Source of the DNA: Candidatus Parcubacteria bacterium
GTDB lineage: Bacteria; Patescibacteriota; Minisyncoccia; Phycocordibacterales; UBA918
Direction: 5' to 3'
Assembly: GCA_046050355.1 (NCBI GenBank)
Contig: JBJOPW010000004.1
Span: forward strand, 1 to 64,000
DNA: 64,000 bases
The translations under genes and the position numbers were made by a program. Under the pieces are notes generated by a model. The model was given only the letters and a program-made list of their open reading frames with translations, did not search any database and was not told the origin of the DNA. Position 1 is the first letter of the stretch. The number at the start of each line of letters is the position of its first letter. Below, piece by piece: positions 9,164-61,622 of the stretch.

Positions 9164-9266
9164 ATTTTCCCCTCGCGCTAGAGTGTTACAACTCATCTAA
9201 TCATACGCTTGTTTTTGGGAAAATGTAAGCTTCTATAGTGCTGTTGCTTGTAAGCTGTTATTTATG

Positions 9267-9349
<83 letters not shown>

Positions 9350-12207: not shown

Positions 12208-12213
12208 CGAGTG

Positions 12214-12284
12214 CGGGCCCATTCCGACTCGAACGGAAGACGGCGGTTTTGGAGACCGCTGTTTTACCACTAAACTATAGGCCC
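12214..12284 (-). tRNA. tRNA-Trp(CCA)
   Basis: GGGCCTA...TGGGCCC acceptor stem, anticodon loop CTCCAAA, GTTCGAGTC T-loop. Confidence 0.93.
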
Positions 12285-32407: not shown

Positions 32408-32573
32408 GTGGACTTTTGCCTTGCCTGAAGAGTCGTCGTATGTGGTTGATTTTTTATGGGAATCCATGCCTTTTCTAGTCTCATTATCATTCCACAGATC
32501 GAGACTACAAGCAAAGGTTGGGTGACCGGATTCTGCAGACCCGGCCACCCGCGCTCCCACAAGGGGAGGGTCG

Positions 32574-32756
32574 TCAGGTCTCGCGGCGCGTGATCCGCTC
32601 TTGGAGCCATTCCAGCACTTCGCTTTCGACCCATCCGACCCGGTTCGGCCCGAGGTTTACCCGCTTGGGGAATGCTCCGACCTTTTCCAGCCTCGCGACG
32701 TGTTGCGGCGAGTACAGGACCAACTCTTTGAGCTGGCGCTTTGAAAGTATCCTCAT
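32574..32756 (-). CDS. AlpA-family regulator/excisionase
   Basis: FPKRVNLGPNRVGWVESEVLEWL motif. Confidence 0.88.
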   Translation of the reverse strand: MRILSKRQLKELVLYSPQHVARLEKVGAFPKRVNLGPNRVGWVESEVLEWLQERITRRET

Positions 32757-32953
32757 CACGATCTCTCCATGGTGAAGAGCATCGCGATGCCCAGGGTTAC
32801 GACGTTCCTAGGTGTGAGGAGAGTAGTGCGAGATTAGTTGCCATGCCATAGAGTTGTGCCGCTCTTGATCCGTTCCTGCATGGCCAGTGTGCGCTTTGAT
32901 TGAACCGGGATAGGGTTTTCGATTAGACTCCTGCACATGAAATGGAGGTACGA

Positions 32954-33343: not shown

Positions 33344-33586
33344 AGGTGGTCTAGAAGGTGGACCGGATTCTCAGCGCTCTACAAAAGCTATATTTTTCAG
33401 TGCATTGGAAAATTTAGTGGTGCCCAGAGCCGGAATGGGATTGCCGGAACATTCCAACACATAGCCTTGCATTTTCAATTTCTTAGACCAAGTCGCGGCT
33501 CCAAGGGCAACACATCGCCGAACATCGCTGAACATACAATCACAACCCTTGAGGTGGACTAAAAGGTGGACTAGAAAAGGTGGACT
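33344..33586. repeat. attP-like site: tRNA 3'-end core flanked by integrase arm-type repeats
   Basis: Reverse complement of 33418-33436 is ATTCCGGCTCTGGGCACCA; two AGGTGG(A/T)C repeats on the left, three on the right. Confidence 0.72.
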
Positions 33587-33599
33587 GCGGGAGGATTCG

Positions 33600-34760
33600 A
33601 TGGTTCTCTTGAACAGCCTGAACCCACTGAAAGCAAAGAACCTAGTCGCAGGAAAGCACGCTGACGGCCAAGGACTTTGGCTAGTGAAGAGTGAGCGCAC
33701 TCGGGGAAAGTGGGTTCTCCGCGTTGTCGTCCAAGGAAAGCGTCGGGAAATGGGTTTGGGCCGGTGGCCTGACGTCTCCATTGCTGAAGCGCGTGAGTTG
33801 GCCGCGGAGGCGCGGAGGAAGCTCCGGACAGGCATCGATCCGATAGCTCAACGTGTTGAAGGCCGGAAGAAAGTCGTACGCCTAACGGTACAACAAGCAG
33901 TGGACGCGTGCTTCGAGGCACGAAAAGCAGAACTCAAGAGCGACGGCGAGGCGGGTCGCTGGATGTCTCCGCTCTCAGTCCACGTGCTGCCGGTGATTGG
34001 AAAGACTGCGATAGAGGACGTCGATCAACATGTGCTGAAGAAAGCTTTGGAGCCCATCTGGCACTCAAAGGCCGACACAGCTCGAAAAGCTCTAAACCGC
34101 CTCAGCTTGACCCTAAAGCATGCGGCTGCACTTGGACTGGAAGTAGACCTCCAGGCAACGATGAAGGTCCGGGCTCTCCTAGGCAAACAAAGGCACGTGT
34201 CCGAACACATTCCTTCGATGCCATACAAAGACGCACCGGCCTTCTATCGCTGGCTCTCCGAACAGACCTCGGCGGCAGCCCTACCGCTTCGCTTCCTCAT
34301 TTTGACAGCTGCCCGAACTGGAGAGGTGCGCTATGCTCGGCATAGCTACATTGAGGACAAAGTTCTTACACTCCCTCCCGAGATCACAAAGACCGGGCGT
34401 GAACACAAAATTCCGCTTACATCGGAAGCCGCAGCAGTGATCAACGCTGCGAAGCTGCAAGACAGCCAGGACCTGTTGTTCCCTTCCCCAACCGGAAAGA
34501 CCTTCTCTGATGCGACAATGTCACGATTAATGCAGCGTGAAGGCCTAGTTTATAGGCCCCATGGCTTCAGGGCCACATTCCGGACGTGGGTCGAAGAACA
34601 AACTGACACTCCTCTCGAAGTGGCTGAGGCCGCACTCGGGCACGTCGTAGAGGGACAGGTCATCCGGGCCTACCAACGATCTGATCGACTTGAGAAACGA
34701 CGATCCTTGCTAGTCAAATGGAGCAAGTATCTGCAAGACACAGGACACCCCAACCCATAG
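33600..34760 (+). CDS. P4-like tyrosine integrase
   Basis: GKHADGQGLWL arm-binding domain; RTGE, HGFR, LGH and RAYQR catalytic motifs. Confidence 0.95.
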   Translation: MVLLNSLNPLKAKNLVAGKHADGQGLWLVKSERTRGKWVLRVVVQGKRREMGLGRWPDVSIAEARELAAEARRKLRTGIDPIAQRVEGRKKVVRLTVQQAVDACFEARKAELKSDGEAGRWMSPLSVHVLPVIGKTAIEDVDQHVLKKALEPIWHSKADTARKALNRLSLTLKHAAALGLEVDLQATMKVRALLGKQRHVSEHIPSMPYKDAPAFYRWLSEQTSAAALPLRFLILTAARTGEVRYARHSYIEDKVLTLPPEITKTGREHKIPLTSEAAAVINAAKLQDSQDLLFPSPTGKTFSDATMSRLMQREGLVYRPHGFRATFRTWVEEQTDTPLEVAEAALGHVVEGQVIRAYQRSDRLEKRRSLLVKWSKYLQDTGHPNP

Positions 34761-45121: not shown

Positions 45122-45157
45122 AAACGTAAAAGTCCCCAATCGGGGACTTTTACGTTT
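45122..45157. terminator. Bidirectional terminator
   Basis: AAACGTAAAAGTCCCC-AATC-GGGGACTTTTACGTTT. Confidence 0.8.
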
Positions 45158-45166
45158 ACGTGTAGG

Positions 45167-45345
45167 GTGCCGGAGATAGGACTTGGTCACAGATAATTTC
45201 TTGCAGAAATTTCCGCGACCCCGCCTCATAGTCGCAGAGCGACATATTCCGGCTTTCAAGTCCCTCACGAAAGTAAAGCAGTTTGCTTTCTCTCCGGCTC
45301 ATTAAAATCAAAATGCGCCATAAAGCGCATTAAGATTTTATATTG
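45167..45345 (-). other. tRNA-Leu 3'-associated structured element
   Basis: Split antisense copy of the tRNA 3' end, internal hairpins, terminal degenerate direct copy CAAGTCCTATCTCCGGCAC. Confidence 0.75.
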
Positions 45346-45426
45346 TGCCGGAGGAGGGACTTGAACCCTCACACCTTGCGATAATGGGTTTTGAATCCAT
45401 CGCGTCTACCATTCCGCCACTCCGGC
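45346..45426 (-). tRNA. tRNA-Leu(CAA)
   Basis: GCCGGAG...CTCCGGC acceptor stem, loop TTCAAAA, long variable arm. Confidence 0.95.
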
Positions 45427-61376: not shown

Positions 61377-61447
61377 TGCCCGATCGTCTAATGGTAGGAC
61401 TCTGGTTTCTGGCACCAGCTATCGAGGTTCGAATCCTTGTCGGGCAG
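61377..61447 (+). tRNA. tRNA-Gln(CTG)
   Basis: TGCCCGA...TCGGGCA acceptor stem, loop TTCTGGC, GGTTCGAATCC. Confidence 0.93.
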
Positions 61448-61622
61448 CACGAGAGAATTAAGCGCTTTATAGCGCTTTTTCTCGTGCTGCCCGAAGGAGT
61501 GATTCAATATCACTCCGTCAAGGATTCGAAGCCTGATTGAGCATAATTTGTGACTGAAAGGAAACAAATTATCCAATCAGGATACTGCTCCTGTAAGGAG
61601 AGAAATTCCTTGTCGGGCAGCA
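61448..61622 (+). other. tRNA-Gln 3'-associated structured element
   Basis: Split antisense copy of the tRNA 3' end, internal hairpins, terminal direct copy TCCTTGTCGGGCAGCA. Confidence 0.78.

Follow-up and report, generated by a model that had tools for sequence, protein, structure and literature searches.

Directly 3' of the tRNA-Gln(CTG) gene in the window (the whole 64,000-nt stretch of DNA that was analysed, contig C4 of the host genome) lies a non-coding unit of 174 nt. Our best explanation, to which we give a probability of roughly 0.45, is that it belongs to a lineage-specific, insertion-type family of structured trailer RNA modules, co-transcribed with the tRNA and repairing the tRNA gene that they interrupt. 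The modules would have entered tRNA genes in their 3' part, at some point from the T loop to the 3' end, and would supply their own copy of the tRNA 3' end (the proximal direct repeat, DR1), leaving the tRNA gene intact. They would also supply a conserved three-hairpin core (Pa, Pb and Pc) and, usually in this genus, a terminator-like cap. Insertion would push the tRNA's original end downstream, together with the native trailer and terminator, and this displaced end would become the distal direct repeat, DR2. In the unit RNA, two Watson-Crick antisense arms would pair with DR2, closing the junction as in the E. coli RtT RNA; in read-through transcripts the arms could instead capture the tRNA's own 3' third. 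On this proposal the arms match the tRNA next to them since they have to pair with sequence that the tRNA holds fixed; compensatory change, or templated correction of the palindrome, probably keeps them in register.

The Gln element and its host gene consist of the following parts.

61377..61448, plus strand: host gene tRNA-Gln(CTG), with no CCA encoded (ARAGORN; Rfam tRNA, 56.4 bits)
61434..61449, plus strand: DR1, the proximal direct repeat TCCTTGTCGGGCAGCA, comprising the T-stem 3' strand, the acceptor 3' strand, and the discriminator with 2 nt (sequence reading)
61449..61485, plus strand: cap region, with hairpin AAGCGCTTTATAGCGCTT (61460-61477) between the trailer and the trailer complement, then a T run (terminator scan; fold)
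61484..61494, plus strand: antisense acceptor arm GTGCTGCCCGA (sequence reading; arm comparison)
61496..61516, plus strand: hairpin Pa, GGAGTGATTCAATATCACTCC, with A on one side and GT (61517-18) on the other (fold)
61519..61530, plus strand: antisense T arm CAAGGATTCGAA, complement of the T loop and the T-stem 3' strand, forming helix P2 (sequence reading; arm comparison; consensus fold)
61532..61581, plus strand: long hairpin Pb, type-A core (RNAalifold and covariation)
61582..61587, plus strand: conserved junction AUACUG, consensus gUACUG (consensus of 86 aligned copies)
61588..61600, plus strand: hairpin Pc, CTCCTGTAAGGAG, with conserved CUGUAAG (consensus fold, 99% of cells paired)
61607..61622, plus strand: DR2, the distal direct repeat, a 16-nt copy of TCCTTGTCGGGCAGCA that, with the element folded alone, pairs with the T arm and the acceptor arm (helices P2 and P1)

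All of the Gln parts listed in the initial annotation are present in the sequence, with small corrections to their coordinates. They run in the order terminator-like cap, antisense acceptor arm, Pa, antisense T arm, Pb, Pc and direct copy of the tRNA 3' end, with AGAAAU between Pc and DR2; from the viewpoint of DR2, the whole unit is an insertion within the T loop. The cap motif GCGCTTTATAGCGC lies within the hairpin at 61460-61477, and the terminator scan calls this G+C-rich stem-loop, with the TTTTT that follows it, an intrinsic terminator, a call that applies to the cap only. Positions 61478-61485 and the antisense acceptor arm together are the complement of the tRNA-Gln 3' end plus its trailer: the arm makes a 16-nt run against DR1 plus trailer and one of 10 nt against DR2. 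The Gln-type Pa hairpin is also found in free modules on other contigs. When the element was folded alone (178 nt), the predicted helices were exactly the listed parts, at -80.1 kcal/mol (z = -9.2), with both arms paired with the distal copy (P1 and P2). The unit carries no protein gene, in agreement with the first description, and the only open reading frames that cross it are mechanical ones overlapping the tRNA. One detail of that description fell away: where a GTAA tetraloop of the GNRA type had been read, the conserved C-U-GUA-A-G makes a 3-nt loop closed by a U-A pair (78 of 81 rows), with no clear GNRA tetraloop.

The second element in the window stands behind tRNA-Leu(CAA).

45345..45426, minus strand: host gene tRNA-Leu(CAA) (ARAGORN; Rfam scan)
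45167..45344, minus strand: Leu element, 178 nt (sequence reading; fold)
45315-45328, minus strand: cap GCGCTTTATGGCGC, inside a hairpin
45291-45300, minus strand: antisense acceptor arm, followed by Pa and GT
45255-45266, minus strand: antisense T arm
45186-45254, minus strand: inner core of two hairpins, type-B-like and unlike the Gln core
45167-45185, minus strand: imperfect distal repeat (CAAGTCC-TA-TCTCCGGCAC)
45122..45157, minus strand: strong terminator-like hairpin just past the distal repeat (sequence reading)

The two elements had been described as one scaffold with different tRNA-specific sequence. They do share the order of their parts, a near-identical cap, the GT junction and a similar length (174 and 178 nt). 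Their inner cores, however, are of different scaffold types, the supposedly common GNRA loop did not hold up, and the Leu distal copy is imperfect. The Leu element has a predicted fold of -75.3 kcal/mol (z = -7.05). The hairpin at 45122..45157 is probably the original terminator of tRNA-Leu(CAA), and a terminator after the distal copy recurs in the same arrangement behind other elements.

Extent of structural conservation was assessed in the type-A core. In an alignment of 19 type-A units from 13 genomes, RNAalifold found compensatory changes in 24 of the 28 predicted pairs. A covariance model built from these 19 units gathered 86 copies, 81 of them distinct. Standard pairs fill 96.6% of the paired cells in the distinct copies, against 66.3% in shuffles (none of 500 shuffles reached the observed value); fitting the alignment to the covariance model inflates this share, although the margin is still large. 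Paired cells fall to 39–52% when the partner is slid by 1–3 columns, and double changes occur in all 28 core pairs. The core is thus one scaffold with strong covariation, and the absence of covariation that would have spoken against such a family is not what we see. Letters conserved in unpaired positions are GAAG, GAG...CGAA at the Pb tip, gUACUG and UGUAA.

G-U pairs far outnumber A-C in the core alignment (83 to 18), which places the fold on the tRNA-sense strand. Such a bias is what one would expect of a structure read as RNA on that strand; G-T pairing within single-stranded DNA is a possible alternative. Co-transcription with the tRNA and a role as RNA, both presumed here, are argued from this excess of G-U and from the covariation. 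The phrase "programmable RNA-like element" from the initial annotation can be kept in part: the evidence supports a family of structured, RNA-like elements that combine one scaffold with arms specific to each tRNA, and this does not extend to arms that act as a target-choosing guide.

Searches against Rfam 15 gave no match except tRNA, 5S and noise (the window at the gathering threshold, both elements at E up to 10, nine further loci at E up to 0.1); no Rfam 15 model of a self-cleaving ribozyme, group I or II intron or T-box matched over the element.

The arms are tailored to the neighbouring tRNA throughout the host genome, which has 0.94 Mb in 17 contigs and 42 tRNAs called by ARAGORN. By 7-mer marking, in which the last 30 nt of each tRNA were compared with up to 400 nt downstream, 19 of the 42 have their own 3' end repeated downstream in antisense as well as in sense orientation; a stricter alignment rule assigns an element to 15 of the 42. 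We controlled for specificity by comparing the tRNA-specific last 16 nt all against all. Antisense exact runs of at least 9 nt were found at the own locus for 12/42 tRNAs, against 11 of 1722 combinations of a tRNA with another locus; for sense runs of that length the counts were 13/42 and 6 of 1722 foreign combinations. Several of the foreign matches are adjacent tRNA genes, or a tRNA-Leu unit behind another tRNA-Leu: the arms of these units fit one tRNA-Leu, and the host is another with which it shares the T arm. That the complementary segments track the adjacent tRNA, as had been claimed, therefore stands far above chance.

A 43rd tRNA, found later in the host genome, has a 236-nt insert in its anticodon loop.

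Whether the arms always match their neighbour is a stricter question, and here the acceptor arm falls short. At 29 loci from other genomes of the order, picked by the core model only, a sense run of at least 9 nt follows 22/36 tRNAs (32/1260 cross pairs), but an acceptor-plus-trailer antisense run of at least 9 nt is found in only 10/36 (23/1260 cross pairs). Many units elsewhere in the order are without the cap and acceptor arm and retain the T arm alone, the acceptor arm being weak or absent. The invariant plan accordingly reduces to tRNA, Pa, antisense T arm, Pb, Pc and sense copy; the cap and acceptor arm are, by this comparison, a subfamily feature common in the genus studied here.

We searched for further copies with the core model. 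The host genome has 45 matches (E up to 0.01), 20 of them no more than 400 nt downstream of a same-strand tRNA and 25 elsewhere; all seven matches above 100 bits are tRNA-linked. The tRNA-free copies include an array of five on contig C7, nested copies on contig C11, and one inside a duplicated 5' fragment of 5S rRNA. Matches were found in 94 of the 151 genomes of the order, covering 83 of its 131 genera (E up to 1e-5), and in only 1 of 150 genomes from the rest of the phylum. In an exact-motif scan with one genome per species, nearly all records were titled Patescibacteria, Parcubacteria, Paceibacteria or 'uncultured Saccharibacteria' MAGs; three matches in other groups are probably due to chance. 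By the titles of relatives' records, the family appears lineage-specific, within Paceibacteria-type Patescibacteria. Logan contigs from public runs held a near-identical tRNA-Gln with its element in two other runs, from other samples. A full-text literature search found no report of such elements in Patescibacteria. Supplementary table S1 and figure S4 of PMC12045711 treat 'stem arrays' in candidate-phyla-radiation (CPR) bacteria, which may be relevant to the tRNA-free copies of the core.

The insert is bounded on both sides by repeats of the tRNA 3' end in direct orientation, as is expected of an integrative element, and one alternative is that these units are inert scars: att-site duplications left by islands or phages at tRNA genes, with hairpins that arose by chance or are ordinary terminators. 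Such repeats are a classic mark of integrase-mediated integration, and the T loop as one boundary is a feature of integrase att sites at tRNA genes. A P4-type integrase is encoded in the window (33549-34760), and partial duplications of tRNA 3' halves do occur. The likeness to tRNA-integrated islands and prophages, with their tyrosine integrase and attL/attR, goes further: in both, duplication of the tRNA 3' end leaves the functional end supplied by the element and the original one displaced. Unlike those islands, the present unit is only about 175 bp long, has neither an integrase nor any other gene, and has antisense arms and a conserved fold of RNA type. An ordinary Rho-independent terminator matches the G+C-rich cap hairpin and T run directly after the tRNA, but accounts for only 30 of the 174 nt, leaving over the arms, core and distal copy. 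Scars are contradicted by a conserved core in which every pair covaries, by a family in 94 genomes, by tRNA-matched antisense arms and by 45 copies in 0.94 Mb. We give this explanation almost no credence; the possibility raised in the initial annotation that the unit might prove a simple terminator or att scar was not upheld in the face of the covarying core and tailored arms.

What the arms pair with was compared in 30 well-defined units. For the acceptor arm, the proximal tRNA end with its trailer is the better match, ahead of the distal copy, in 26 of the 30 (mean run 14.9 versus 8.3 nt), and the T arm fits the proximal end better in 28 (11.4 versus 7.9 nt), a comparison biased by the fact that arms were located through their match to the tRNA. 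Runs of 20–25 nt that reach into arbitrary trailer sequence are independent of this bias. Perfect palindromes of 22–25 nt pass through such trailer sequence; these are hard to credit to slow compensatory change and hint at a templated or guided process. The arms also carry the complement of non-palindromic T loops and, at tRNA-Ala, an A opposite U70.

We considered separately whether the arms might be the 5' strands of a degenerate second tRNA copy. This is ruled out by the T-loop complement, the A opposite U70 of tRNA-Ala and the trailer complement.

When tRNA-Gln and its element were folded together, the arms formed pairs with the tRNA 3' third across the cap, and DR2 did so with the tRNA 5' acceptor strand in the centroid. 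At -119.8 kcal/mol, this co-fold is predicted to be a stable alternative to the cloverleaf for read-through RNA. The initial annotation had offered, as one of two readings, a cis switch controlling tRNA folding; its support is thermodynamic, namely the capture of the tRNA 3' third by the arms in the predicted read-through RNA. A fuller version of that idea is a host-serving, RtT-like cis element of tRNA transcripts. Its cap would terminate most transcripts; upon read-through, refolding would allow a stable trailer RNA, perhaps itself functional, to be cut away by RNase III or by tRNA-processing enzymes, or would inactivate faulty read-through tRNA. This model is unlikely in our view. It gains from the cap scoring as a terminator, from a predicted read-through fold that is far more stable, with the tRNA 3' third in the arms and the 5' acceptor strand in DR2, and from a covarying family that is conserved across an order. 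It also gains from E. coli, where RtT is reported to take part in tyrT transcript processing (bioRxiv 10.1101/2024.07.17.603846). On the other hand, about half of the tRNAs have an element and orthologues differ in this respect, so the element is dispensable. The discriminator and next 2 nt of the Gln unit are base-paired, unlike an RNase P or RNase Z substrate, and the core is found 25 times away from tRNAs.

Several lines of evidence say that the element does behave as an insertion, gained and lost. A comparison among relatives, suggested at the outset, places it in 10 of the 27 usable tRNA-Gln loci of the genus, the other 17 being element-free (30 loci in total, 27 of them with enough downstream sequence; calls were made by eye from marked sequences). 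The nearest genome, G054, has an identical tRNA-Gln, syntenic upstream genes and no element; since it differs in all sequence downstream of the tRNA, this is a synteny break rather than a precise empty site. Tandem arrays, with a repeat-to-repeat period, are found behind tRNA-Lys, tRNA-Leu and tRNA-Ser. Among congeners, one tRNA can be followed by differing Pb subtypes or by wholly different scaffolds, and one subtype serves many tRNAs; scaffold types A, B and C are unrelated, and each bears arms for its own tRNA. The core tree does not seem to follow tRNA identity, with 37 label changes against 40.2 in shuffles (minimum 35), a result that carries little weight in so short a tree (57 rows, 73 columns). 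Paralogous units within the host genome have diverged, so no recent burst is visible.

The polarity of the insertion can be read from the two tRNA ends, the distal one having the appearance of the displaced original. In tRNA-Gln genes that have no element, CCA is often encoded and ACTCG comes next; at one filled tRNA-Gln locus (L003) the CCA and the start of the trailer are at the distal copy, and none is at the functional proximal end. At tRNA-Ser(TGA) of the host genome, CCA follows the distal copy and is itself followed by a trailer 18/19 identical to that of the element-free tRNA-Ser(GCT). Distal copies usually precede a second strong terminator, and in some units the acceptor part of DR2 has decayed. 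Across 118 tRNAs, CCA is encoded in 20/77 of those without a distal copy and in 3/41 of those with one; because only 3 of the 41 distal copies themselves precede CCA, the polarity argument rests on few loci.

Neither an excised or circular form nor a transcript end was detected in Logan contigs; there was one weak joint (61448 to 61547, one contig, side 22). A precise empty allele was found neither among the Logan contigs nor in metagenome contigs, which were scanned twice for exact matches to the distal repeat and its flank: one scan gave a chance match in an unrelated G+C-rich contig without a tRNA, and the other gave nothing. We infer that the modules may spread by recombination within the duplicated tRNA end, and that they may benefit the host, for example in the termination or processing of tRNA transcripts.

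The other reading offered at the outset was a non-autonomous mobile unit whose internal guide specifies its tRNA target. The mobile part agrees with the insertion-like behaviour, the gain and loss, the tandem arrays and the displaced native-type ends. For the guide part, the proximal-biased match of the arms (26/30 and 28/30 units) fits equally a palindrome kept in register after insertion. A guide-programmed element would have arms that base-pair with the 3' end of a tRNA gene or with its transcript (single-stranded DNA or RNA) and direct insertion there, catalysed by the RNA fold of the element itself or by an enzyme of the host or a phage. Integration of CTX phage DNA, as a folded single strand, and of integron attC sites offers an analogy; the order sense, loop, antisense, core, sense is the outcome that would follow from integration of a small circle with a target-mimicking hairpin. 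Also in line with a guide are the true antisense of the proximal tRNA end, which continues into the trailer in runs of up to 25 nt, the gain and loss across the genus, and the units with arms for one tRNA-Leu behind another that shares its T arm. Unrelated scaffolds A, B and C with arms for their own tRNA, and one tRNA with differing scaffolds in congeners, suggest that arms are easily re-made. We nevertheless hold guided insertion to be improbable: the paralogues show no recent burst, the contigs scanned hold no circular form, excised form or empty allele, many units of the order are without the acceptor arm, and no candidate enzyme tracks the family.

Candidate movers were sought in the host genome and its relatives. 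A linked recombinase or reverse transcriptase, which the initial annotation had thought worth looking for, did not emerge: the host genome has only two tyrosine recombinases (PF00589), neither adjacent to an element, and its single reverse transcriptase sits beside bAvd, as in a diversity-generating retroelement. TnpB, IS110 (PF01548), Nop/Tas (PF01798) and Cas1 had no match in the host genome, with the caveat that very divergent Tas proteins could escape Pfam.

The host genome does have one IS200 TnpA and three RAYT-like genes. REPIN/RAYT sequences and palindromic derivatives of IS200/IS605 resemble the present family in being short, abundant, hairpin-forming, non-coding repeats, and their mobilisation occurs in trans; the target of IS200/IS605 is recognised through pairing with an internal guide. 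A Y1 or RAYT transposase was rejected as the mover, since in 40 relatives Y1 (PF01797) does not co-occur with the elements (18/29 element-positive and 7/11 element-negative genomes), and nearly complete genomes such as G006, G010 and G019 have elements and no Y1 gene. The arms here are also of 10–25 nt, not 4–5 nt.

The bridge RNA of IS110 and the guide RNAs of TIGR-Tas are conceptual relatives only, as structured non-coding RNAs of similar size that base-pair with a DNA target. The host genome has no DEDD or Nop-domain gene to go with them, and here the sense and antisense arms cover one stretch and pair mutually, rather than lying in open loops. For the dual-guide RNAs of TIGR-Tas, PMC12045711 describes reading of the DNA target by base pairing, with both strands addressed.

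The closest known system is RtT (RF00391), the 178-bp repeats of the E. coli tyrT-tyrV locus. Four RtT units, scoring 133–137 bits, lie at that locus; all contain the antisense GGGGAAGGAT and terminate in 19 nt copied from the tRNA-Tyr 3' end, beginning within the T loop. In the Rfam RtT consensus, the closing helix is this antisense-to-sense pairing. The present family likewise lies 3' of a same-strand tRNA, in units of about 175–178 nt that form tandem arrays, with a final direct copy of the tRNA 3' end from the T loop and an internal antisense that pairs with the copy as a closing helix. The differences are that RtT, found in enterobacteria, is devoted to a single tRNA, lacks a cap hairpin and has an antisense of only 10 nt, whereas the family described here serves about 20 tRNAs per genome with several scaffolds, has an acceptor arm that extends into the trailer, and includes tRNA-free cores. 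The RtT covariance model (gathering score 45 bits) matched neither element of the window (E up to 10) nor any of nine further loci (E up to 0.1), so the present family is RtT-like in anatomy but not a member. The earlier statement that no named family is known for the element holds as far as Rfam matches go, and needs the addition that E. coli RtT RNA has the same closing architecture. The function of RtT itself is unsettled; involvement in tyrT transcript processing and stress is reported in bioRxiv 10.1101/2024.07.17.603846.

Returning to the insertion-type trailer module that we prefer, its significance depends in part on what the arms do. In the boldest form, the unit would be a re-programmable insertion element free of protein genes, whose RNA or single-stranded DNA fold uses two antisense arms to recognise the 3' third of any tRNA gene, inserts at the T loop or 3' end, and brings a replacement tail and a terminator. 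We regard this as quite unlikely. If true, it would amount to natural nucleic-acid-guided homing by host enzymes or by the element's own catalysis, with the side effect that one tRNA body has two alternative 3' ends chosen by termination or read-through.

With some 45 core copies in 0.94 Mb, the family is an abundant one; it covaries strongly, is absent from Rfam and occurs in a major uncultured bacterial lineage. It makes the architecture of E. coli RtT a general, re-usable design, applied to some twenty tRNAs, and no one-off; with many independent instances at hand, the decades-old puzzle of the nature and origin of RtT repeats is opened to comparison. Should the arms turn out to direct insertion, the family would represent a novel type of mobile element guided by nucleic acid. 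If they are not guides, it would still be a new class of tRNA-linked structured RNA, one that bears on the transcription, termination and 3' processing of tRNAs in Patescibacteria.

Three loci elsewhere in the genome, one of them just beyond the window, carry elements next to tRNA genes of unusual structure or different identity.

Contig C5, 47400-47720, minus strand: tandem units behind tRNA-Leu(CAG)
Contig C10, 21500-22400: tRNA-Ser(GGA), with a second tRNA-Ser, truncated at its 5' end, immediately behind it
Contig C4, about 68064-68372, minus strand, just beyond the window: tRNA gene whose anticodon loop is interrupted by 236 nt of inserted sequence

The carried 3' end in the C5 units is that of tRNA-Leu(TAG), an exact 16/16 match, rather than that of the neighbouring tRNA-Leu(CAG); the two tRNAs have their T arm in common. 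At the serine locus the truncated gene spans the anticodon arm to the 3' end and differs from tRNA-Ser(GGA) in its acceptor, and the two elements that come next both match this shortened gene rather than the full-length tRNA-Ser(GGA). The C4 gene was overlooked by ARAGORN in default mode and detected in its intron mode; two tandem tailored elements lie behind it.

Copies of the type-A core (the conserved hairpins Pa, Pb and Pc) also occur at a 5S rRNA locus.

Contig C2, about 125110-125452: 5S rRNA (match of 62.8 bits) with core copies

Upstream of this 5S gene, its leader and roughly its first 36 nucleotides are present in a further copy, into which a core is inserted. A second core lies downstream of the gene on the opposite strand.

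A strain of roughly 95% identity, from another freshwater sample (sequencing run X5), has the same element as that of the window tRNA-Gln (61377-61448). From window position 61549 onward, its Pb tip is swapped for a GGAGCGAAGCGAA-type tip, a motif frequent among other copies of the element.

The remaining two window tRNAs carry no element, and the second is followed by an ordinary terminator.

9266-9349, minus strand: tRNA-Tyr
12213-12284, minus strand: tRNA-Trp

Other trailers recur as well. Six congener genomes have a distinct tRNA-Gln trailer, 'CATGTGAGAC ... GAGTCATGGRCTCGAAC' (loci L036, L043, L052, L053, L054 and L058), and a hairpin trailer, 'CGTGCTAGC.CGAGAC', is recurrent behind CCA-encoding tRNAs.

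Genes for transposase-type proteins and a reverse transcriptase lie on other contigs.

C7:24316-24675; C2:111467-111718; C1:6036-6263; C1:69263-69484: one IS200-type TnpA and three RAYT-like Y1 proteins
Contig C11, 987-2393: reverse transcriptase gene

These four transposase-type proteins share a genome of only 0.94 Mb; the three RAYT-like ones, of 211–236 aa, score under the NCBIfam cut-off. Two genes adjoin the reverse transcriptase gene, one bAvd-like and the other for a tRNA_anti-like OB-fold protein; the locus is probably a diversity-generating retroelement. Also on C11, from about 33150 onward (L080/L120), an ORF behind the tRNA-Met element has a putative LAGLIDADG-like motif, picked out by eye.

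The window itself contains an integrase gene about 760 nt from a small RNA match.

32528-32789, minus strand: Trans44_sRNA match (Rfam, 174.6 bits, full length)
33549-34760, plus strand: P4-type integrase gene (Arm-DNA-bind_3, Phage_int_M and Phage_integrase)

Together these two may mark an island integrated beside a small RNA gene.
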